IMG/VR virus record: IMGVR_UViG_2706794662_000014 | From: a virus | Lineage: Duplodnaviria > Heunggongvirae > Uroviricota > Caudoviricetes | Length of the DNA stretch: 9,660 nt | Direction: 5' to 3' (one strand) | Shown: positions 1 through 9,660 of the stretch, piece by piece | Position numbering within the stretch: the stretch's first letter is position 1 | Layout: every line of letters begins with the position of its first letter | Position numbers and translations under genes: made by a program | The notes under the pieces: model-generated | Seen by the model: only the letters and a program-made list of their open reading frames with translations | What the model was told of the DNA's origin: nothing | The model's database searches: none

Positions 1-83
1 AGGGACAGCTGATAGAAACAGAAGCCACTGGAGCACCTCAAAAACACCATCATACACTAAATCAGTAAGTTGGCAGCATCACC
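1..83 (-). mobile_element. IS1 insertion sequence, partial (left inverted-repeat end; element continues left of the window)
   Basis: Positions 1-83 read as the reverse complement of the first ~83 nt of IS1 as I recall it; terminal repeat GGTGATGCTGCCAACTTACTGAT appears as ATCAGTAAGTTGGCAGCATCACC at 61-83. insA 5' end lies on the minus strand from ~28 leftward. From memory, not a search. Confidence 0.9.
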
Positions 84-235
84 CCGCCACAGAACAATTA
101 TTGCTTTTGCCGTTGATGACAATAAAGTTTTTATCGCAGGCGTATACCACGGTGGGCAAATCTATGAAACCGATTTTTTATCCAGTGCACCGTAAAACCC
201 CCATCCTTCAGGGCGTGGCGGATATCAAACTTTGG

Positions 236-1318
236 TCATTTTCTCTGGCTGATCTTTACCGGATAACCATCCCGAAGATCAATTAAGTGCTCCGGTTCAG
301 AAGCAAACCATGCATAAGATCCCCACGCCAATTCTGGTATTGCCTTTTTAAAAGGCAGAGCACTTCTGTCCATAAATGCCGTAAGGAATGCAAGATTTTT
401 CTCGCTGAACCCAGCGTCAATAGCCAAATGAGTGAGAGTAACTTTTCGTTCCCTGTTTATAGGCCCATCTGTCGCAACTACTTCAGTGAAAACTACAAGC
501 ATGTCCGAACCCGTTCGGTCCTCTCCCAAATCAATCAAAATAATATCTGGAAGTGCTTTTGAGGCATCAATATTCAGCCCCAATGCTTTTGCCAATACAT
601 CATCCTGAGCAACAACTTTATTCCCGGATTCAGACAACCAGAGCACAGTTGGATTCTTAAGAAAATTAGGAGCAAAAACTTCGATGACGGCCTTAGCTAT
701 TGTACTTGACGGGCCCGGAGCTAAAGTTCTCTTCTCTCCATTTGGGAAAGTGACGACTACGGCATCAGCAGCAATCACTGCCCCTGATTTCAATAAACGC
801 AACCTAGCAAGAGCGGCTTTGTTCAAATGATTTTCTTGCCAGGAACTTATTGCACTCAGCAGCGAATCTCCTTCAAGCCCGGCATCAAAGAGTGCTGCAA
901 AAGAGCGATTCAAACTGTAACGAGGACGAGAGGATGTGGTGGGTATACCTTTACGCTCAACAATTGCATTGCAAGGTATTAGGCCATTTTTTATAGTTTC
1001 ATCACGTATTGGCTCACGCGTATTTTCCGCATACCATGCATCAGCAGGCCTTATCTTTTGTTTAGAGAAAGTCATCTTTACCCAGCTTTCTCTGGACGCA
1101 TCATCAGTAAGAGCAGCCTGCGAATCTCCCATACTTACAACCTGGCTGGGCCTTATCCATCGCCCCAGCCCCTCAACCGCACCAGCATAAAACATGACAA
1201 AAATTGTTTTTGCAGCTATTTCCCGAATTAAATATCCACGATTCTCAGTCCCTTCAGGGAAAATTAATTGTAATCTTTCCCGGATAACATTCAATGGGGG
1301 AACAACAGGCAGATTCAT
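236..1318 (-). CDS. Putative type II restriction endonuclease, PstI/BsuBI-like
   Basis: 360-codon ORF. ATG (1318-1316) overlaps the methyltransferase TGA stop (ATGA at 1315-1318), GGAG ~9-12 nt upstream. C-terminal segments LPDIILIDL...LVVFTEVVATDGPINRERK and AWGSYAWFASEPEHLI resemble my recollection of PstI-family enzymes (LPDVVVYD...LFLIEAVTSHGPISPKR). Position directly downstream of a methyltransferase. Family assignment is unverified recall. Confidence 0.6.
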   Translation of the reverse strand: MNLPVVPPLNVIRERLQLIFPEGTENRGYLIREIAAKTIFVMFYAGAVEGLGRWIRPSQVVSMGDSQAALTDDASRESWVKMTFSKQKIRPADAWYAENTREPIRDETIKNGLIPCNAIVERKGIPTTSSRPRYSLNRSFAALFDAGLEGDSLLSAISSWQENHLNKAALARLRLLKSGAVIAADAVVVTFPNGEKRTLAPGPSSTIAKAVIEVFAPNFLKNPTVLWLSESGNKVVAQDDVLAKALGLNIDASKALPDIILIDLGEDRTGSDMLVVFTEVVATDGPINRERKVTLTHLAIDAGFSEKNLAFLTAFMDRSALPFKKAIPELAWGSYAWFASEPEHLIDLRDGYPVKISQRK

Positions 1319-3147
1319 GCAATCATCACTCCATAGAAACCAGCGATAGTTCTCTCAATAATCCGTCTGTGGACGCCAGCATCAATTAACGATTGAATCT
1401 CCATCACCTGCTCCAGAGAAGGCAACGGGATTGAATTCAATTCATAGGCCGAAACAGCAACACTTCCGCTTATACACCTGAACGCCCGATCGACAACATG
1501 CGAATTAAGTAGCATATCAATAACATCAGGGCGAACCGCAGAGAACAATCCGTTTGAATATACAATATTAATATGGTTTTCAACTACTACGCCACCAGTT
1601 TCATCTATAAATCCCTGAGGTAAAATTGCCGCTAAAATCCTTCTGTCCTGTTCCTTCGATGTTGTCCGCTGAACAAGCACACATTCAGATTTTGTCACAA
1701 GGAAACCCTGTTGTGGGGTTATATCGATATAGGGAACATGATTTTTTCTGTCTGCACTAAAACGAAAACCAGCTGAAGTTATTGATTCCGCCCAGACTAA
1801 TGGGTAGCTATTTTTTCCTTTCGTCGTACGCAACTGCGACTTAAATCGATTCCAGACTAACTGACCTGTAGAGACTGAGTATCCCAGATCAGCTAAACGC
1901 GTAGACATCTGTTTTAATACATTAAGAAAACAGGCATCATCTTTAACGCGTGGCAAAAGCCACGTTGCTCCACCTTTTTCTATATCAACATTACCTATTT
2001 TCTCAATTTTTGCTTTGTTCAACCCCTTAGGGACAAGTGAGGATACCTGGGCCCGAACTTTATGTTCTCCCGCCTTGAATGCTGTCAACATTGTTTCCTG
2101 GAGAACATCGTCAAAGACCCCATCCCTGTCAGTGACGAAATCAAGGGCATACGGAGTAGTTTTTTCGGTCAAAAGGGTTCGCAGCGCGGTGAAATACTGC
2201 CCACCAAGAAAAGAAGTTGGCGTAAGAAATGCAATAACTCCTGTTTTCTCTTTAACCATGCGAACAGCTAAGTCGGTGAACAATCCATATAGATTTGCAT
2301 GACCAAATAACGAACGAGAATATTTTTCTCTCGTTTTAATATCGAGAGTGACACGTCCGTAAGGCGGATTCCCTACCACAAGATCATAACCAGAAAATTT
2401 ATCTTGCTGAAGCGCATCAGCAACAATAATTGTATCTTCAGGCAATCTACGTTTTACCTTTACACATAGTGGCATTAGTACAGATTCGAGCAATACCAAA
2501 CTCATCCAAGCCGCAAATGGATCGATTTCTATCCCCTTTAAACGACGACTGATTCTCCTCAACATCCATTCAGGGGAAGACCCCTTGTCTTTTTTTAACA
2601 TTCGAATGGCTACTGGTGCCAAAAATGCACCGCCACCACACGCAGGATCAATAACCGATGCATGAGAAAAATCAACACCAGACTTTTCAGCCAGGTCCAA
2701 GAGACGCGCTACCAAAGGTGGGGGGGTATAGTAAGCCCCCAATTCCGAACGGTAAGCGGATGGCAGCATTACCGTATAAATTGACCCAATCAGATATCCA
2801 GCGTCCTCCGCCGGAAATTGAGCAATAAGCTCACCTGTTCGTTCAGCGAGCTCGCGTGCATCACATGGAATGTCTTCTATGTAAACAGTGTGCGGTACTG
2901 CCCTCATTTTAATGCTGCTTTTTTGCTTTTTTGCAAGGGTATCCCAATATGCAGCTACGATGCTGAAGCAGTATGAGCGGGCATGCATCAACCTTGACTG
3001 CCCGGTTTTGTAATTGCCCGCATAACCTTTGGCCATGGCTTTACAAGTTTGATATCTTTCCAGATTAGAAAACTCATTATCTGTAAAAAAATCAAAATGT
3101 TGCACATTCATAATGTAAAATCCTAATGTATCAAACATGCGGGCCAT
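1315..3147 (-). CDS. N6-adenine (amino) DNA methyltransferase, gamma class, with large C-terminal target-recognition region
   Basis: 610-codon ORF. Motif X GAYYTPPPLV, motif I (AdoMet) VIDPACGGGAFL, motif IV VGNPPYG, in gamma-class order. About 330 aa follow motif IV. Start uncertain (ATG at 3147, 3138 or 3111). Confidence 0.85.
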   Translation of the reverse strand: MARMFDTLGFYIMNVQHFDFFTDNEFSNLERYQTCKAMAKGYAGNYKTGQSRLMHARSYCFSIVAAYWDTLAKKQKSSIKMRAVPHTVYIEDIPCDARELAERTGELIAQFPAEDAGYLIGSIYTVMLPSAYRSELGAYYTPPPLVARLLDLAEKSGVDFSHASVIDPACGGGAFLAPVAIRMLKKDKGSSPEWMLRRISRRLKGIEIDPFAAWMSLVLLESVLMPLCVKVKRRLPEDTIIVADALQQDKFSGYDLVVGNPPYGRVTLDIKTREKYSRSLFGHANLYGLFTDLAVRMVKEKTGVIAFLTPTSFLGGQYFTALRTLLTEKTTPYALDFVTDRDGVFDDVLQETMLTAFKAGEHKVRAQVSSLVPKGLNKAKIEKIGNVDIEKGGATWLLPRVKDDACFLNVLKQMSTRLADLGYSVSTGQLVWNRFKSQLRTTKGKNSYPLVWAESITSAGFRFSADRKNHVPYIDITPQQGFLVTKSECVLVQRTTSKEQDRRILAAILPQGFIDETGGVVVENHINIVYSNGLFSAVRPDVIDMLLNSHVVDRAFRCISGSVAVSAYELNSIPLPSLEQVMEIQSLIDAGVHRRIIERTIAGFYGVMIA

Positions 3148-5472: not shown

Positions 5473-5745
5473 GCACCTGATAANNNNNNNNNNNNNNNNN
5501 NNNNNNNNNNNNNNNNNNNNNNNNNNNNNNNNNNNNNNNNNNNNNNNNNNNNNNNNNNNNNNNNNNNNNNNNNNNNNNNNNNNNNNNNNNNNNNNNNNNN
5601 NNNNNNNNNNNNNNNNNNNNNNNNNNNNNNNNNNNNNNNNNNNNNNNNNNNNNNNNNNNNNNNNNNNNNNNNNNNNNNNNNNNNNNNNNNNNNNNNNNNN
5701 NNNNNNNNNNNNNNNNNNNNNNNNNNNNNNNNNNNNNNNNNNNNN
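5473..5745. other. Run of 273 N (assembly gap or masked sequence)
   Basis: Literal n characters in the sequence. It removes the 3' end of the O-like gene and the 5' end of the DnaC-like gene. Confidence 0.99.
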
Positions 5746-6722
5746 AACCAGGGGTTTTCAAAATTCCGGTCCGGCCCAAAAAACGTCGTCGCTCGCTGAA
5801 CAAATTCCGTTCCCGCTTTCCCGGTCGCCGCCAGGTATCTCGCGTAACGCCTCACACCATCCAGCATGGTCTCTGGTGGCACCCCCTCGCGCAATCTGGC
5901 CTTCCAGGCACTGAATGCGGATTTCTTCGGGTTTGCCCCGGCACGCAACGGGTATTCCCGCCAGACCTGTTCGAACACATCCGGATAATCCACTCGTCCC
6001 ACAGGCTGCCCGGTGTTTTCCGGGGCTACCCGATCGGCTTCCCGCTGAATGGCGGAATCGGCTTCAGGCTGCTGCAGTTGGAGTGATTGCTCCGGCCTTG
6101 CGGTCATCACCTGCTGCACAGCGCCCGAATCGGCTTTCAGCGCATACGCTGAATCGGCTTCCGGTGTCGAGCCTGCTGGCTGACCAGGATTGACGGTCTG
6201 AACATCCCCTGCCTGGTTCGTGGCGTTTTTTACGCCATGGACCATAGTGTTTTGATCTTCTTTATCTGTATCTTTATCTGTATCTGTCGTGACTCGTCGT
6301 GACATGTGCGTGACATTTCGTGACGCGCCGTGACAATCGCCATTTTGTTCCCGCTTTCTTTCCCTCTCTCGCTGCGCCCTCTTGCGCTCTGCAGGAGATT
6401 TTGCGGTTTGCGAAATATTGCCGTTGTCCTCTTTAAGCACCTGGCGTTTTTCCCATCCAGTGATTAAATCACCATCAAGTACCCGCCCCTGCATCGTCTG
6501 CAAAATTGAATCAATTACCTCTTCTGTCACGTCGAGCGCACTTGCCAAATCTTCTGTCGTGACATCAATGTGACCTCGCGTGACATTTCGTGACGCGCTC
6601 ACCAGGAGGTGGATATACACTGCCATCACTGTTGCAATTGGCTGCCCTGACACCCTGGCAATTGTTCGCCACTTAGGGTCATTTGGCATGTCATGCCATA
6701 ATCTGAGCCAGGCGTTAGCCAT
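5746..6722 (-). CDS. Phage replication initiation protein, O-like (YdaU-like), 3' end lost in N gap
   Basis: ATG 6722 (MANAWLRLW...) with RBS AGAGGTGA preferred over ORF-track GTG 6728. N-terminal HTH-like region, low-complexity acidic/Q-rich linker, C-terminal FEQVWREYP...KKSAFSAWKARL. Position between cII-position gene and DnaC-like loader; contains iteron arrays. Confidence 0.65.
6259..6334. repeat. Iteron array plus AT-rich 12-bp tandem repeat: candidate replication origin inside the O-like gene
   Basis: CGTGAC cores at 6288, 6298, 6309, 6319, 6329 (spacing 10-11 bp), preceded by TCTTTATCTGTA x2 (6259-6282). Confidence 0.6.
6523..6598. repeat. Second iteron-like cluster, in the N-terminal coding region of the O-like gene
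   Basis: CGTGAC at 6558, 6579, 6589; TGTGAC at 6569; inverted GTCACG at 6526-6531. The 21-mer GCGTGACATTTCGTGACGCGC at 6578-6598 is identical to 6308-6328. Confidence 0.55.
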
Positions 6723-6793
6723 ACTCACCTCTTCTGATACCGAATCTTTTTACTCACGAGTTGCCGGGAGCGATTCGATATGGCTATTGTCAG

Positions 6794-7219
6794 TCAATGT
6801 ACTGCCACAGCATTTCCTGCCGGGCCACCACGGTTCATCTGATTGAAACCGGCGATTGCCACTGCGACAAAATCATCAGCGTCTCTCACCAGTCGTTCAT
6901 GCGTCTCCACCAGTTCCCGAAAATAAGCTGAACTGTGGCTGCGCATTCGAGCCACCAGCGGAGGTGGCATTGCCCTTTCGATCGCAGGTAACAACGCCTG
7001 AATTTTTTCAACAGCGTCAGGGGTGTCTTTATCCAGCCAACGGAAAATCTTTTGGGTGTTGAGATAAAGCGTGTTGTGCTTGCTGTCGTTATGCAGAACC
7101 GGAAACGTCATTCCCAGTTCGAAATAAACCCTGGTTATTTCAGCTGCCGGAACTTTTTCACCGTCCGGATGCGCCCAGGCTTTCATCGCCATGCGGATGT
7201 GTTCATGCTTGATTTTCAT
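6794..7219 (-). CDS. cII-position protein, possibly YdaT-like
   Basis: 141-codon ORF, ATG 7219-7217 overlapping the Cro-like stop (ATGA). Sits between cro-like and O-like genes. YdaT assignment is from synteny and vague recall only. Confidence 0.6.
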   Translation of the reverse strand: MKIKHEHIRMAMKAWAHPDGEKVPAAEITRVYFELGMTFPVLHNDSKHNTLYLNTQKIFRWLDKDTPDAVEKIQALLPAIERAMPPPLVARMRSHSSAYFRELVETHERLVRDADDFVAVAIAGFNQMNRGGPAGNAVAVH

Positions 7220-7479
7220 GAATCAACCCCCGCCGATGGTTGTGTGTTAGCCTGAAACTCAGCAGGCAAGCCGTCAGTTGGGTTGGGGTAGGTTTTACTG
7301 TCAATCTCATGTGGGGTCACCACCCATCCCGTTGCTTCACACCAACGTAATATTTTTTCTCCTGTAAGTTTTGCACGCCCCGTTATAACGTGGCTGACCA
7401 TCCCTTGGGATGCGCCAACAATCTCAGCAAATGAACTCTGGGTTATATGAAAATGATGCAAATATTCTCCAAGATTCAT
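7216..7479 (-). CDS. Cro-like HTH transcriptional regulator
   Basis: ORF track starts at TTG 7506; first ATG at 7479 (MNLGEYLHH...). HTH segment SSFAEIVGASQGMVSHVITGRAKL. Divergent from the repressor gene, downstream of the PR-like promoter. Confidence 0.7.
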   Translation of the reverse strand: MNLGEYLHHFHITQSSFAEIVGASQGMVSHVITGRAKLTGEKILRWCEATGWVVTPHEIDSKTYPNPTDGLPAEFQANTQPSAGVDS

Positions 7480-7513
7480 AATCCGCCCTATGTGATGTGT
7501 TACCAATGCATAA

Positions 7514-7542
7514 TTAATAGCACTGTTATTTTTAAAAGTAAA
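7514..7542 (-). promoter_or_regulatory. PR-like promoter for the cro-like operon
   Basis: On minus strand: -35 TTTACT (plus 7537-7542), 17-nt spacer, -10 TATTAA (plus 7514-7519); ~27-nt leader to ATG 7479. Confidence 0.45.
7516..7530. promoter_or_regulatory. Operator-like 15-bp palindromic site OR-a (AATAGCACTGTTATT)
   Basis: Half-sites AATAGC / AATAAC around a 3-bp centre; overlaps the PR-like -10. Member of a four-copy motif family. Confidence 0.6.
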
Positions 7543-7555
7543 TAGTGATGCTATT
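7541..7555. promoter_or_regulatory. Operator-like 15-bp palindromic site OR-b (AATAGTGATGCTATT)
   Basis: Centre 25 bp from OR-a; overlaps the PR-like -35 and abuts the PRM-like -35. Confidence 0.6.
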
Positions 7556-7583
7556 TCAAAGTGATTAGCAATCTTATTAGAAT
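7555..7583 (+). promoter_or_regulatory. PRM-like promoter for the repressor gene, possibly giving a leaderless transcript
   Basis: -35 TTCAAA (7555-7560), 17-nt spacer, -10 TAGAAT (7578-7583); predicted start ~7590, at the ATG (7591). No clear Shine-Dalgarno before ATG 7591. Confidence 0.4.
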
Positions 7584-7590
7584 TGGATGT

Positions 7591-8091
7591 ATGAAAAGAA
7601 AATCATTGTCAGACACCGACCTCAACGCCGCCAGAAGACTGAAAGAAATCTGGATGGCAAAGAAATCTCAGTTGGGATTGACTCAGGAACGTGCGGCGGA
7701 AATTATGGGGTTTTCAACACAAGGGGCGGTAAGTCACTACCTAAATGGTCAAACCCCACTAAACCTTGAGGCTGTTCTAAAGTTTGCTGGCTTACTGAAA
7801 GTTCCCCCTGAGTCAATCAGGCCAGACATGGTAGATTTGCTGCAAATTGCAAGGATGTATTGTCGAGAACCACAGCAAGATAACATAGTCGCATTACCAG
7901 CAGACACAGAACAAACAGAGGATGAACTACCGTTTGCCGTAGAGCCGATGGAACGAGATTTAATCCATACGTTCAGAGCTTTTCCGAAAGAAGATCAAGA
8001 ACACATGCTTCAGGAGATGAAAGATAAAAAAGAATCAATGGATCGTACGGTTGCGCGGTGGTTAGCTGCACAAAAAGGCCGTCGCGCCTAA
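7591..8091 (+). CDS. Prophage repressor, lambda cI N-terminal-domain-like HTH, no S24/LexA-type cleavage domain; possibly PaaR2-like regulator of the downstream toxin-antitoxin pair
   Basis: ATG 7591 (MKRKSLSDTDLNAARRLKEIW...) preferred over ORF-track GTG 7561. First ~80 aa parallel lambda cI as I recall it ([35 protein letters not shown] vs LSDTDLNAARRLKEIWMAKKSQLGLTQERAAEIMG). Total 166 aa; C-terminal half acidic with no Ser/Lys peptidase motifs. Confidence 0.75.
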   Translation: MKRKSLSDTDLNAARRLKEIWMAKKSQLGLTQERAAEIMGFSTQGAVSHYLNGQTPLNLEAVLKFAGLLKVPPESIRPDMVDLLQIARMYCREPQQDNIVALPADTEQTEDELPFAVEPMERDLIHTFRAFPKEDQEHMLQEMKDKKESMDRTVARWLAAQKGRRA

Positions 8092-8110
8092 ATCAGAGGA
8101 GATATGTAAA

Positions 8111-8305
8111 ATGAGTACAGTCCTTTCCCCAATGGTTTCAGAATTTGAGACAGTTGAGCAAGAAAATAGTTACAACGAATGGCTGCGGGCCAAAGTAGCA
8201 GCAAGCCTCGCGGATCCCCGCCCGGCGATTCCGCATGATGAGGTAATGGCGGAAATGGAACAAATTATTGCCCAAATTGCTGCTGCAACTCACAGAGGTG
8301 AATAA
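8111..8305 (+). CDS. paaA2: Type II antitoxin, PaaA2-like, partner of ParE-family toxin
   Basis: 64-codon ORF, RBS AGAGGAG (8095-8101) 9 nt before ATG, TAA stop overlapping the toxin ATG (TAATG at 8302-8307). Sequence LSPMVSEFETVEQENSYNEWLRAKVAASLADPRPAIPHDEV matches my recollection of PaaA2 from E. coli O157:H7; symbol is from memory. Confidence 0.7.
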   Translation: MSTVLSPMVSEFETVEQENSYNEWLRAKVAASLADPRPAIPHDEVMAEMEQIIAQIAAATHRGE

Positions 8306-8595
8306 TGTTACCCGTTTTATGGCTACCATCTGCTCGTGATGATTTGCGCCAGATCGTAGCCTACATAGCTAAAGAAAATCCCGCGGCAGCACGCAGAATG
8401 AAAATTCGAATTGAAACATCCGTTTTGCCGCTCACAGAGCATCCTTACCTGTATCCTCCAAGCGAGCGAGTTCTTGGTCTTCGTGAAATTGTAACTCATC
8501 CTAACTACATCATCCTTTACCGAGTAACAGCATCAAGCATAGAAGTAGTAAATATTGTGCATTCTCGAAGACAGTATCCAGGCAAAAACAGTTAA
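8305..8595 (+). CDS. parE: ParE/RelE-superfamily toxin (ParE2-like)
   Basis: 96 codons. Typical ParE pattern: MLPVLWLPSARDDLRQIVAYIA...PYLYPPSERVLGLREIVTHPNYIILYRV...IEVVNIVHSRR. Translationally coupled to the upstream antitoxin. Confidence 0.85.
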   Translation: MLPVLWLPSARDDLRQIVAYIAKENPAAARRMKIRIETSVLPLTEHPYLYPPSERVLGLREIVTHPNYIILYRVTASSIEVVNIVHSRRQYPGKNS

Positions 8596-8611
8596 TTATT
8601 CCCGCCGACAG

Positions 8612-8636
8612 AACCACCTTAGGGTGGTTTTTTCTT
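8612..8636 (+). terminator. Rho-independent terminator ending the repressor/toxin-antitoxin transcript
   Basis: Stem AACCACC (8612-8618), loop TTAG, stem GGTGGTT (8623-8629), then T-tract TTTTTCTT to 8636; 17 nt after the parE stop. Confidence 0.75.
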
Positions 8637-8651
8637 GCCCCAACAAAAAAC

Positions 8652-8666
8652 AATAGCGATGCTATT
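8652..8666. promoter_or_regulatory. Operator-like 15-bp palindromic site OL-a (AATAGCGATGCTATT)
   Basis: Perfect palindrome around a GAT centre; overlaps the -35 of the PL-like promoter. Confidence 0.6.
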
Positions 8667-8694
8667 TACATCAAAAAAATAATGATGCTATTGT
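8665..8694 (+). promoter_or_regulatory. PL-like early promoter
   Basis: -35 TTTACA (8665-8670), 18-nt spacer, -10 TATTGT (8689-8694); both hexamers overlapped by operator sites; sits just downstream of the terminator. Confidence 0.45.
8678..8692. promoter_or_regulatory. Operator-like 15-bp palindromic site OL-b (AATAATGATGCTATT)
   Basis: Centre 26 bp from OL-a; overlaps the -10 of the PL-like promoter. Confidence 0.6.
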
Positions 8695-8873
8695 TTCAGG
8701 CGTCAACCCTCCCCGCCCCACAGAATGCAGGGCAATACTTCGAGTTACCAGACAGTGGTCAGGGGTTAAGTAGCCAGCCCGAGGCGTAAGAACATGACGG
8801 CAGGGTTCAATCTTTAACTATGCAGCAGGTTTTTTGTTCCGCCACCCCGGCGTTAAGGGGAAATGAGGTCAGC

Positions 8874-9026
8874 ATGGATACTATCGATCTTGGCAACAAC
8901 GAATCTCTGGTGTGCGGCGTGTTCCCTAACCAGGATGGAACGTTTACCGCCATGACGTATACCAAAAGCAAAACGTTTAAAACCGAATCTGGCGCGCGTT
9001 GCTGGTTAGCCAGAAACACTGACTGA
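8874..9026 (+). CDS. Small hypothetical protein (50 aa), first gene after the PL-like promoter
   Basis: ATG 8874 with GAGG (8865-8868) 5 nt upstream is preferred over the ORF-track ATG 8820, which has no RBS. TGA stop overlaps the next start (TGATG). One Cys pair, no recognisable motif. Confidence 0.45.
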   Translation: MDTIDLGNNESLVCGVFPNQDGTFTAMTYTKSKTFKTESGARCWLARNTD

Positions 9027-9403
9027 TGAGGCTGACGATGGAATTTAAAGATTTACCGTCTGATGTACAGAAAACAGCAGCTCATACATTGCATTCTGTG
9101 CTGCGAGAAATCGGGAAAGATATTGCAAGCGAGCCAGCAAAAGATCTGGCCCGGAAAATCAAGACCGCTTTCGTTGAGCTTTATAATGTTGGCACTGACT
9201 CTGAAACTGTCGAGACCAAGACCGTAAGTTCACCAATATTCTCACTTGAGCCAAGCGTATTATCAGGTGAAATATGCACCGAGATTTCCAGCGAACTGCT
9301 TCCGGTAATACGAGAAGCAATTCGCCGTCGCGGTTTGGATGGAAGTTATGATCATGACGTTCTGCAAGTTCTCAGGACAATGGTGACTTCACTGGGGATT
9401 TGA
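9026..9403 (+). CDS. Hypothetical protein (125 aa; or 121 aa from ATG 9038)
   Basis: ATG 9026 overlaps the upstream stop; alternative ATG 9038 has GAGG (9028-9031) 6 nt upstream. Acidic, helical-looking; not arginine-rich as lambda N would be. Confidence 0.5.
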   Translation: MRLTMEFKDLPSDVQKTAAHTLHSVLREIGKDIASEPAKDLARKIKTAFVELYNVGTDSETVETKTVSSPIFSLEPSVLSGEICTEISSELLPVIREAIRRRGLDGSYDHDVLQVLRTMVTSLGI

Positions 9404-9535
9404 TCCCTGCGTCCTCTAAGCTTTTGATATAGCGGTCCTCCAAGAAGCGGTAAATTTTGTCGAAATCATCTTTTCCCTCTGGTTTATTCAGAGGATTACA
9501 GGACCCGTAAGTAGCGGCATACATTTCAACCGTTT

Positions 9536-9660
9536 GGTAATGACTCCAACTTATTGATAGTGTTTTATGTTCAGATAATGCCCGATGACTTTGTCATGCA
9601 GCTCCACCGATTTTGAGAACGACAGCGACTTCCGTCCCAGCCGTGCCAGGTGCTGCCTCA
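9536..9660 (-). mobile_element. IS1 insertion sequence, partial (right inverted-repeat end; element continues right of the window)
   Basis: 9536-9660 reads as the reverse complement of the last ~125 nt of IS1 as I recall it (GGTAATGACTCCAACTTATTGATAGTGTTTTATGTTCAGATAATG...). insB 3' end on the minus strand, TAA at 9551-9553. Same orientation as the copy at 1-83. Confidence 0.9.

Follow-up and report, generated by a model that had tools for sequence, protein, structure and literature searches.

Our goal was to understand the role of two overlapping genes, adjacent to the immunity repressor gene of a Caudoviricetes virus (IMG/VR record IMGVR_UViG_2706794662_000014). An earlier note, made from the sequence alone, had likened the pair to ydaS-ydaT of the Rac prophage. 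Hence, it was proposed that the genes might form a second module that inhibits growth unless restrained by an essential repressor. Does the locus encode such a module, or does it encode regulators? All analyses used the surrounding 9,660 nucleotides of DNA, hereafter the window, and features of interest are listed in Table 1. Note that a related region, ydaS-ydaT/paaR2-paaA2-parE2 of prophage CP-933P, has been described by Jurenas et al. 2021 (PMC8630535) and Prolic-Kalinsek et al. 2023 (PMC9986795; PDB 8bt1). CP-933P, also known as Sp12, is a cryptic prophage of E. coli O157:H7 in which PaaR2, YdaS, and YdaT act as analogues of CI, Cro, and CII, with bistability (PMC8630535). We find that the two genes very probably belong to a lambdoid prophage switch of the CP-933P/Rac type, for which they encode Cro-like and CII-like (YdaT) regulators. 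Homology, gene order, operator and box sequences, and purifying selection all point this way.

Table 1. Genes and regulatory elements of the immunity region, by position in the window
Feature	Position	Strand	Description
Replication initiator / replisome-organiser gene	5746..6728	-	Directly downstream of ydaT, lambda O position; phrog_3729 2.8e-211
ydaT	7219..6794	-	141-aa CII-like tetrameric POU/HTH transcription activator, assigned by homology
YdaT-box (OM)	7209..7226		TTGATT-CATGAA-AATCAA on coding strand; ATGA overlap in spacer
Cro-position gene	7479..7216	-	87-aa XRE-type HTH protein, not YdaS family; ATG at 7479
OR1-like operator	7516..7530		AATAGCACTGTTATT; overlaps putative PR -10 TATTAA (7519..7514, -)
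OR2-like operator	7541..7555		AATAGTGATGCTATT; between putative PR -35 TTTACT (7542..7537, -) and PRM -35
PRM-like promoter	7555..7583	+	TTCAAA-17-TAGAAT, from promoter scan
Weaker OR3-like operator	7564..7578		ATTAGCAATCTTATT; inside PRM spacer; 3 mismatches
Immunity repressor	7591..8091	+	166 aa; lambda CI-like N-terminus, PaaR2/DicA-type C-terminus, no S24
paaA2-like antitoxin	8111-8305	+	PF21217 3e-23; PDB 3zbe 1.4e-23
parE2-like toxin	8305-8595	+	PF05016 1.8e-17; PDB 5cw7 6.7e-37
Hairpin	8607..8634	+	Inverted repeat AACCACC-TTAG-GGTGGTT plus T-run; conserved in relatives; missed by terminator scan
OL-like operators	8652..8694	+	8652-8666 exact palindrome AATAGCGATGCTATT; second at 8678-8692
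PL-like promoter	within 8652..8694	+	TTTACA-18-TATTGT; overlapped by OL-like operators; points to ydfA-like genes

The overlapping genes are under purifying selection

In the open reading frame listing, the genes for the 87-aa and 141-aa proteins share four bases (ATGA, 7216-7219). The arrangement is the same for E. coli RMDEC465 in RefSeq, where both CDS, their starts, and the 4-base overlap are identical; the 87-aa protein is also 100% identical. Hence, this part of the earlier description is borne out. The listing offers the Cro-position gene an alternative upstream start, a TTG codon at 7506, which would generate a protein of 96 aa. Use of this codon is unlikely, because the predicted -10 element of the rightward promoter is located at 7514-7519.

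Comparison with an 82% identical locus (L003) gave dN/dS ratios of 0.14 (cro-like gene) and 0.20 (ydaT), at dS of 0.39-0.75. Across all four genes tested (cro-like, ydaT, repressor, and parE) values were between 0.08 and 0.20. We conclude that the cro-like gene and ydaT are real genes under purifying selection. Note that ATGA overlaps are common in bacterial operons and, alone, are not statistically remarkable. Here, it is the YdaT-box across the overlap that fixes it. Among relatives, the spacing of the gene pair varies: the genes overlap by 4 or 17 nt, or are separated by 10 or 22 nt.

The 141-aa protein belongs to the YdaT family

The 141-aa protein matches Pfam family PF06254 (YdaT) at E 5.1e-9, its score of 36.9 bits exceeding the cut-off of 21, and phrog_163, 'CII-like transcriptional activator' (3.1e-40). 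Matches to PDB entries 3c4r (3.9e-79) and 8bt1 (3.1e-70) align end to end, and the protein is 77% identical to the crystallised CP-933P/Sp12 YdaT. The earlier note called for alignment to the K-12 proteins and, for YdaT, the expected similarity was found over the full length (33% identity to Rac YdaT, E 3e-16). By homology, the 141-aa protein is thus a true YdaT, with a predicted POU-like HTH and C-terminal tetramerisation helix. The recognition helix segment, NTQKIFRWLD, is identical to that of CP-933P YdaT. Residues R60 and W61 align with the conserved R57 and W58 of the Rac recognition helix; the His preceding this Arg-Trp in Rac is absent here, and likewise in CP-933P. In the hydrophobic core of the tetramerisation helix, compared with that described for CP-933P (PMC9986795), five of seven residues are identical and the other two are conservative changes (L103, L110, V111, A114, F117, V118, and A121, against I103, L110, V111, V114, F117, V118, and A121). 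None of the Pfam, PHROG, or NCBIfam family searches linked YdaT to lambda CII. Note that Wons et al. describe the YdaT recognition helix as similar to that of lambda CII. Pfam and RefSeq still label the family 'YdaT toxin'.

The 87-aa protein is a probable Cro-position regulator unrelated to YdaS

The 87-aa protein gave a sub-threshold match to Pfam HTH_3 (20.8 against 23 bits) and matched phrog_35 (8e-17). A PDB search with the sequence returned a single, marginal, match (2auw, E 0.07). An AlphaFold model was then informative. Residues 1-52 have pLDDT scores of 80-93 and the model consists of four helices, with block-mean pLDDT of ~79-93 over residues 1-50. In fold searches, the model superposed on P22 c2, HigA, and 434-type HTH domains, with rmsd of 0.8-1.0 Å over 48-49 residues; for P22 c2, HigA, and ClgR, probability was 1.00 at the same rmsd. 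The modelled fold is that of an XRE/434-type helix-turn-helix. The C-terminal tail is predicted to be disordered and carries a conserved motif (YPNPTDG[LI]P). NCBIfam HTH models of the HigA/HipB type scored below threshold (22 bits against a cut-off of 47.7). We read this as generic XRE similarity, which does not point to an antitoxin.

The protein is also not a YdaS, as had been supposed. BLASTP produced no alignment with K-12 YdaS at E<=100, and none with Sp12/CP-933P YdaS at E<=10. As a positive control, the Sp12 and K-12 YdaS proteins aligned with one another (2e-9). Similarly, there was no match to the YdaS family PF15943 (COG4197) at E<=0.01, and BLASTP gave no alignment to the Cro-position protein of Sp11. 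Its homologues (~51-53% identity) are instead encoded in the Cro position of phages Rac-SA53 and Lyz12581Vzw, opposite dicA and a LexA-type cI respectively. As in these homologous phages, the 87-aa gene is the first of an operon divergent from the immunity repressor. Taken with the predicted fold, this identifies the 87-aa protein as a Cro-position XRE-type HTH regulator, as found in lambdoid phages.

Operators and promoters of the immunity region

The pair had also been described as divergent from a repressor with no cleavage domain, and this proved correct. For the 166-aa repressor, Pfam detects HTH_3/HTH_31 alone, and no Peptidase_S24 domain. Residues 2-81 are homologous to the N-terminal domain of lambda CI (E 2.9e-9). 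At the other end, the final 44 aa share 52% identity with the C-terminus of PaaR2, and there is a match to the DicA C-terminus (7e-8). No BLASTP similarity to RacR was detected. From the sequence, the paaA2-like and parE2-like genes are predicted to be co-transcribed with the repressor gene, and the hairpin beyond them is a probable terminator for the resulting repressor-TA operon.

Palindromes of the form AATAGC-N3-GCTATT occur four times in the window at two mismatches or fewer (0.41 expected). With a fifth, weaker, site (the OR3-like operator), they form two clusters, as in lambda, with three operators between the divergent promoters (OR, 7516-7578) and two past paaA2-parE2 (OL, 8652-8692). 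Taken alone, the OR3-like operator does not exceed chance expectation. It fits the other two in position and in spacing (23-25 bp), and is conserved in relatives. In three related loci (L001, L003, and L004) the half-sites of the OR operators are kept while the centres vary; the OL-like half-sites are conserved in the same three loci. Since neither the Cro-like protein nor the DNA-binding domain of the repressor is homologous to tested CP-933P or Rac proteins, we infer operator binding by both from the repeat structure and position.

The proposed rightward promoter, PR (TTTACT-17-TATTAA), is weak and was assigned by reading the sequence and by its conservation in relatives; a consensus promoter scan reported no rightward promoter. 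On the opposite strand, the -10 element of the PRM-like promoter ends at 7583, with the repressor ATG at 7591, and no Shine-Dalgarno sequence. With the start site placed from spacing, transcription from PRM probably begins at the ATG, or 1 nt before it, implying a leaderless mRNA. A leaderless paaR2 mRNA has been demonstrated experimentally in CP-933P (PMC8630535).

Elsewhere, a search of 6500-9660 with Rfam returned nothing at E<=0.1. RNAalifold analysis of the conserved leader at 8704-8863 identified no covariation, the sequences being too similar. The 3' part of the replication gene is hidden by a run of N (5484-5745); in relatives, this gene is annotated 'phage replisome organizer' or 'DnaT-like'.

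A YdaT-box spans the gene overlap

In CP-933P, YdaT recognises TTGATT-N6-AATCAA, a site defined by footprinting and verified by ITC (PMC9986795). The window contains a single exact match, at the gene overlap, and none of 200 shuffles gave any. This box, and the 5' sequence of ydaT that follows, are identical in CP-933P. The box is also identical to that of Rac at 17 of 18 bases. Footprinting and ITC likewise established the box as the site of Rac YdaT, and the Rac and CP-933P proteins each recognise the box of the other (PMC11879457). Both of these proteins have been shown to activate a reverse promoter directed at the repressor gene. Between 7050 and 7620, allowing up to four mismatches, no further convincing YdaT sites were found, neither low-affinity OL/OR equivalents nor intergenic sites, and we found no PRE-like promoter from the sequence.

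Comparison with known switches

Resemblance to CP-933P extends to gene order, orientation, the 4-nt ATGA overlap, and the replication gene after ydaT. PaaA2 and ParE2 are 75% and 67% identical respectively, and identity reaches 92.6% over the 160 nt of leader that follow PL. Conversely, nucleotides 7231-8025 (the cro-like gene, the operators, and the N-terminal and central parts of the repressor gene) have no nucleotide homology to CP-933P. The Cro analogue is of another family. The operators, 15 bp palindromes here, are 18 bp palindromes built on GTTTAGTAA in CP-933P. The repressor differs too: its N-terminus is lambda CI-like and it is 166 aa long, whereas PaaR2 has 123 aa. Hence, the locus is a heteroimmune variant of CP-933P. 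One mosaic boundary between the two falls precisely at the YdaT-box.

The Rac comparison drawn in the earlier note holds in part. Shared with racR/ydaS-ydaT of E. coli K-12 are the layout (a divergent repressor with no S24 domain, an HTH gene, a YdaT homologue in the cII position, and downstream replication genes), the position of the ydaT ATG in the spacer of the YdaT-box (PMC11879457), and a conserved leader upstream of the DUF1391 gene (84%). However, the HTH protein does not resemble YdaS and the repressor does not resemble RacR. Furthermore, Rac has a 22-nt gap in place of the overlap, and no TA pair after the repressor. Toxicity data belong to the Rac proteins only.

In position and predicted logic, the locus resembles the lambda cI/cro-cII region, with divergent PR and PRM promoters, three spaced operators, and a second cluster at PL. 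Also shared are the CI-like repressor N-terminus and a site for the activator where the cII-position gene begins; a leaderless repressor mRNA, as in lambda, is predicted. The Cro analogue is, however, an all-helical XRE HTH protein, and does not have the lambda Cro fold. Similarly, YdaT binds an inverted repeat whereas lambda CII binds a direct repeat (TTGC-N6-TTGC). There is no RecA-sensitive, self-cleaving, S24 domain in the repressor, and a TA pair occupies the rexAB position.

In Escherichia phage Rac-SA53 (KU052037) the equivalent region is dicA/'dicC'-ydaT. The gene for a Cro-position protein, 51% identical to that described here, directly precedes ydaT and replication genes. The two loci have in common the box and the 3' end of the cro-like gene. 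Differences are a 10-nt gap rather than an overlap, a right box arm of AATCAG, another repressor, and no annotated paaA-parE.

Growth inhibition is not the favoured explanation

We next weighed whether the pair could be a toxin-like module, with unrepressed expression harmful, and the repressor conditionally essential, as in Rac. This is improbable, although several observations are compatible with it. The family name in Pfam and RefSeq is one. In Rac, racR silencing, or expression of ydaS/ydaT, is toxic according to two reports (PMC5700373, PMC5700377). Inducing Rac YdaT in a Δrac host lowers CFU by four orders of magnitude, activates rcsA, and damages membranes (PMC11879457). Because box and recognition helix match those of CP-933P, and the Rac and CP-933P systems cross-recognise, the 141-aa protein could conceivably bind the host rcsA site. 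In CP-933P, growth also suffers when PaaR2 or YdaS is over-expressed for long periods, a growth defect being the only effect seen for YdaS (PMC8630535).

The closest characterised system argues otherwise. No toxicity was detected for CP-933P YdaT, the nearest characterised homologue of the 141-aa protein (PMC8630535). With the cloned CP-933P locus, most growing cells are ydaST-on, and paaR2 stop mutants were studied as growing, uniformly ydaST-on, populations (PMC8630535). The YdaT fold is that of a DNA-binding POU/HTH protein, not a toxin (PMC9986795). The Rac YdaS reported to be toxic is of no relation to the 87-aa protein. Excess lambda CII is toxic as well, yet CII is not counted as a toxin (PMC5917428). 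Hence, we do not favour the proposal of a second growth-inhibitory module under an essential repressor. Assignment as a type II toxin-antitoxin pair is likewise not supported; both proteins are HTH DNA-binding proteins, and the CP-933P homologue was judged experimentally not to be a TA system (PMC8630535).

By analogy with Rac, a CP-933P-type YdaT such as this might also bind a box-like site in the host, for instance upstream of rcsA, and be lethal on loss of the repressor. We think this doubtful. If true, ParE2 and YdaT would be two independent devices for addiction or growth arrest within the immunity region, and the cell would conditionally depend on the S24-less repressor.

It is very improbable that the pair is a decaying, functionless, remnant of a cryptic prophage with a merely inherited overlap and box: relatives do sit in defective prophages (with frameshifted integrase and IS insertions), FDAARGOS_943 has a frameshifted Cro-position gene of the Cro/CI family opposite a different, LexA-type, repressor, and the window shows no late genes, but both reading frames are intact with the low dN/dS ratios noted above, operator half-sites are conserved while centres drift, the YdaT-box is exact, and induced phages carry ydaT and replication segments that are ~90-94% identical.

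Discussion

The pair is best read as part of a switch of known type, already characterised in E. coli O157:H7, and not as a new toxin module. By analogy with experiments in CP-933P and Rac, we would expect DNA binding, promoter activation, and bistability to combine as follows. The rightward early operon of the immunity region would start with the cro-like gene and ydaT. During lysogeny, the CI-like repressor would occupy the AATAGC-N3-GCTATT operators between the divergent promoters and so turn off the rightward promoter. Simultaneously, it would maintain its own expression, and that of PaaA2-ParE2, from the PRM-like promoter. Should repression lapse, the Cro-like protein would be made and, expected to act at the same operators, would shut off PRM. 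A G-rich Shine-Dalgarno sequence of its own would serve the translation of YdaT, which the ATGA overlap may couple to that of the upstream gene. A YdaT tetramer would then bind the box straddling its own start codon, and activate a reverse, PRE-like, promoter. Transcription from here would run back through the cro-like gene and into the repressor-TA operon. The outcome would be a bistable switch. In such a scheme, if forced expression inhibited growth, this would be incidental to the action of a regulator, rather than the function of the pair. Note that the role of YdaT may not be purely phage-internal, given the lethality of Rac YdaT and its action on a host target, rcsA.

The main result is a correction to annotation, since the label 'Toxin YdaT family protein', beside an HTH gene, invites a toxin-antitoxin reading. 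The real TA pair is paaA2-parE2, which here is also controlled by a switch of the prophage lysis-lysogeny type. A specialist would expect no surprise from the locus. Even so, it is a natural heteroimmune variant: YdaT, the box, the repressor C-terminus, and the TA cargo are as in CP-933P, with the cassette for Cro, operators, and repressor DNA-binding swapped. Hence, the locus is a handy comparator for separating those parts of the bistable switch in CP-933P that rely on immunity specificity from those that do not.

The overlapping genes and their divergent repressor

The two genes lie on the minus strand, where an 87-aa ORF (ATG 7479, end 7216) precedes one of 141 aa (ATG 7219, end 6794). Positions 7216-7219 are TCAT on the plus strand, hence ATGA on the coding strand, and these four bases are common to stop and start. 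In E. coli RMDEC465, RefSeq annotates both CDS with the same overlap; that locus matches ours over 1.9 kb at 96.7% identity, and its 87-aa protein is 100% identical. Of 5426 complete E. coli genomes, about 72 have at least 80% of this 1.9-kb region and 3068 have parts of it. Compared with the related locus L003, which is 82% identical, dN/dS is 0.14 for the cro-like gene (dS 0.75) and 0.20 for the 141-aa gene (dS 0.39). Hence, both are real genes under purifying selection. For the divergent repressor, Pfam gives HTH_3/HTH_31 only, with no S24 peptidase domain. The earlier note described ATGA-coupled ORFs opposite a repressor without a cleavage domain, and was correct in every part of that description.

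The 141-aa protein is YdaT

We identify the 141-aa gene product as YdaT. It scores 36.9 bits against Pfam YdaT (threshold 21) and aligns end to end with the solved structures 3c4r (E 3.9e-79) and 8bt1 (CP-933P YdaT; E 3.1e-70). Identity is 77% to YdaT of Sakai Sp12, which is CP-933P, and 74% to the Sp11 copy. The proposed resemblance to K-12 Rac YdaT holds over the full length (33% identity, E 3e-16), and the PHROGs class is 'CII-like transcriptional activator' (3e-40). The recognition-helix segment NTQKIFRWLD does not differ from that of CP-933P YdaT. Residues R60/W61 align with R57/W58 of Rac YdaT, in which mutation of R57 together with H56 abolishes DNA binding. In the hydrophobic core of the tetramerisation helix, five of seven residues are identical to CP-933P and two are conservative changes. 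Strong divergence is confined to the alpha2-alpha3 loop, already called variable in the structural paper (PMC9986795).

The Cro-position protein is not YdaS

We rejected the 87-aa protein as YdaS. BLASTP gave no alignment with K-12 YdaS at E<=100, nor with CP-933P YdaS at E<=10, so the likeness claimed earlier is not borne out. As a control, the two YdaS proteins match each other at 2e-9. A Pfam search returned no PF15943 match, and HTH_3 fell slightly under threshold. The AlphaFold model, from an alignment of 14 homologues, has four confident helices within residues 1-52, which superpose on P22 c2, HigA, ClgR and 434-type domains at 0.8-1.0 A. Residues 55-87 (7216-7320, minus strand) are predicted to be disordered (pLDDT <50). 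In E. coli, Salmonella and Raoultella homologues this tail carries a nearly invariant VTPHE...YPNPTDG[LI]P motif, which could serve dimerisation, or recognition by a partner or protease. Homologues form 27 clusters and occur in Enterobacteriaceae only (E. coli, Shigella sonnei, E. albertii, Salmonella, Raoultella). Stx2a phage Lyz12581Vzw has one in the Cro position, opposite a LexA-type cI. Similarly, phage Rac-SA53 has a 51%-identical homologue opposite 'dicA' and directly upstream of ydaT. By this position in phages and the modelled HTH fold, the 87-aa protein is a Cro analogue; its family is not that of YdaS.

Note that the further ydaT copy in Sakai Sp11 (L005 8556-9937; 74% identical to ours) is preceded by an 80-aa Cro-position protein, again unrelated. 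Opposite, in the repressor position, is a 112-aa protein annotated 'phage repressor protein'.

A YdaT-box spans the gene junction

The published high-affinity YdaT site is 5'-TTGATT-N6-AATCAA-3'. Binding of CP-933P YdaT to this site was followed by footprinting, ITC and native mass spectrometry (PMC9986795). In Rac, the site was footprinted and is needed for ~29-fold activation of the reverse promoter toward racR (PMC11879457). The window has a single perfect copy, at 7209-7226 (coding strand TTGATT CATGAA AATCAA); no perfect copy arose in 200 shuffles. The final cro-like codons (V-D-S) fall in the left arm, the spacer holds the cro-like TGA and the ydaT ATG, and the right arm encodes K-I-K of YdaT. 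Sp12 has exactly the same box and subsequent 5' ydaT sequence, and the Rac box shares 17 of 18 bases. Because the box sequence is the same, the 87-aa protein and CP-933P YdaS, otherwise unrelated, both end in GVDS.

Among homologues P0002, P0009 and P0012-P0018, and loci L004, L005 (Sp11) and L009, the Cro-position protein ends either ...VDS, with a 4-nt overlap, or ...(N/I)HENQA. The latter gives a 17-nt overlap, since the other frame runs through the box. In Sp11 and vB_EcoS-640R1 the left arm is degenerate (GGGATT). In Rac the two genes do not overlap but are 22 nt apart, and in Rac-SA53 they are 10 nt apart. The ATGA overlap is thus a by-product of box and frame, and not something that is conserved because it is required. 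As read from the sequence, ydaT has a putative Shine-Dalgarno sequence of its own in a G-run 8-12 nt ahead of its ATG.

Operators, promoters and neighbouring genes

The 111 bp between repressor and cro-like gene contain three candidate operators, with spacing of 25 and 23 bp. Allowing at most 2 mismatches, four operator matches were found where 0.41 were expected; 200 shuffles never gave as many as four. In relatives 82% identical, the half-sites are retained and the central bases drift. As in lambda OR, operator 1 lies over the -10 element of PR, 2 between both -35 elements, and 3 within PRM, both promoters being putative. Our PR proposal was not reported by the consensus promoter scan. The PRM-like start would fall at or beside the repressor ATG, which has no Shine-Dalgarno sequence. 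This predicted arrangement resembles leaderless paaR2, known from experiment, and lambda cI.

Features of the immunity region and its surroundings
Feature	Position	Strand	Sequence	Basis or remark
OR1-like operator	7516-7530		AATAGCACTGTTATT	Repeat search
OR2-like operator	7541-7555		AATAGTGATGCTATT	Repeat search
OR3-like operator	7564-7578		ATTAGCAATCTTATT	Repeat search; weaker
OL-like operator	8652-8666		AATAGCGATGCTATT	Perfect palindrome; downstream of TA genes
Second OL-like operator	8678-8692			Downstream of TA genes
PRM-like promoter	7555-7583	+	TTCAAA-17-TAGAAT	Promoter scan
Putative rightward promoter PR	7542..7514	-	TTTACT-17-TATTAA	Our reading of the sequence; conserved, weak
PL-like promoter				Promoter scan; overlapped by OL-like operators; toward DUF1391/ydfA-like genes
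Repressor, 166 aa	7591-8091	+		ATG 7591; Pfam HTH_3/HTH_31 only
PaaA2 homologue	8111-8305			75% identity; downstream of repressor
ParE2 homologue	8305-8595			67% identity; follows PaaA2 homologue
Hairpin, then T-run	8607-8634			After parE2-like gene
Replisome-organiser gene				Lambda O position, downstream of ydaT; phrog_3729, 2.8e-211
BsuBI/PstI-family type II endonuclease, 360 aa	236-1318	-		Name from FDAARGOS_943 locus
SAM-dependent methyltransferase, 610 aa	1315-3147	-		Name from FDAARGOS_943 locus; overlaps endonuclease gene

Homology to the lambda CI N-terminal domain covers repressor residues 2-81 (E 2.9e-9). At the other end, the last 44 residues share 52% identity with the C-terminus of PaaR2, and the DicA C-terminus matches too. 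Nucleotide homology to Sp12 starts within the gene, at 8026, and the repressor appears chimeric. Judged by these features, the surroundings make up a complete lambda-like immunity region.

Farther out, 262 N (5484-5745) cover the place where the replisome-organiser gene (to 6728, minus strand) meets a DnaC-like ATP-binding gene (from ~4961). Because the N run masks this junction, both ORFs look fused, or have X residues, in the ORF list. A prophage-borne restriction-modification pair (236-3147) shares the strand of the cro-like/ydaT operon; its names were taken over from a 96.8%-identical locus in E. coli FDAARGOS_943. There, the endonuclease gene has a ParD/ParE pair directly upstream. At its left edge (1-195, plus strand), the window appears to retain the cut 3' end of another RelE/ParE-family toxin gene. 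Full-window megablast found matches in 5330 of 5426 E. coli genomes, ~14,900 plasmid places included, with 4692 records at >=99% identity. Hence, the window must contain a short segment that is very widespread, for example a fragment of an IS or repeat.

Mosaic relationship with CP-933P

Nucleotide comparison with Sp12 found homology over 6805-7230 (ydaT and the box), none over 7231-8025 (cro-like gene, operators and most of the repressor), and homology again from 8026 (repressor C-terminus, paaA2 and parE2). There was none at the OL operators, and identity was 92.6% over 8704-8863. Megablast matches to induced E. coli phages likewise end at 7224-7231. One example is vB_EcoS-640R1, where the ydaT-position gene is annotated 'activator protein cII'. 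By these homology blocks and match ends, the window has a heteroimmune variant of the region known from CP-933P. What has been swapped is the specificity cassette (Cro analogue, operators and repressor DNA-binding domain), with one junction at the YdaT-box.

The non-coding segment 8704-8863 (plus strand) separates the PL/OL-like operators from the DUF1391 (ydfA-like) gene and is more conserved than flanking genes. Identity is 93.5% to vB_EcoS-640R1 and 84% to Rac of K-12, between racR and ydaG. Neighbouring operators and repressors are unrelated in the relatives that share it. It had no Rfam match and, the sequences being too similar, no covariation by RNAalifold. The segment could act as a nutL-like or antitermination leader, or represent some other RNA element.

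Probably a switch pair rather than a toxic module

In CP-933P, the operators of PaaR2 and YdaS overlap, and through them the two proteins repress a PL-like promoter as well as both divergent ones; YdaT switches on an otherwise silent PRE-like promoter, and the locus is bistable (Jurenas et al., PMC8630535). The same study detected no YdaT toxicity. With the cloned locus, growing cells were mostly ydaST-on, and paaR2 stop mutants gave a uniformly ydaST-on population. Its authors concluded that YdaS-YdaT is not a TA pair, and Jobling argued the same for Rac from genetic context. The best-supported reading, and in our view a highly probable one, is therefore that the window pair comprises the Cro and CII analogues of a bistable prophage switch.

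The earlier note had instead proposed a Rac-like growth-inhibitory module checked by the repressor. Its YdaT homology and layout stand; the YdaS homology does not. That the pair inhibits growth when unrepressed is a minority possibility, which we consider unlikely. Induction of Rac YdaT plainly kills cells, delta-rac hosts included, via rcsA activation and envelope damage, and the Rac and CP-933P proteins recognise each other's box (PMC11879457). However, the growth of ydaST-on cells with the cloned CP-933P locus, and its YdaT without detected toxicity (PMC8630535), do not favour a toxic module. If derepression of the prophage is harmful, candidates outside the pair include replication genes; dicB, which relatives have on the PL side, is another. 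The window locus adds a new, heteroimmune member to a kind of system that has been characterised before.
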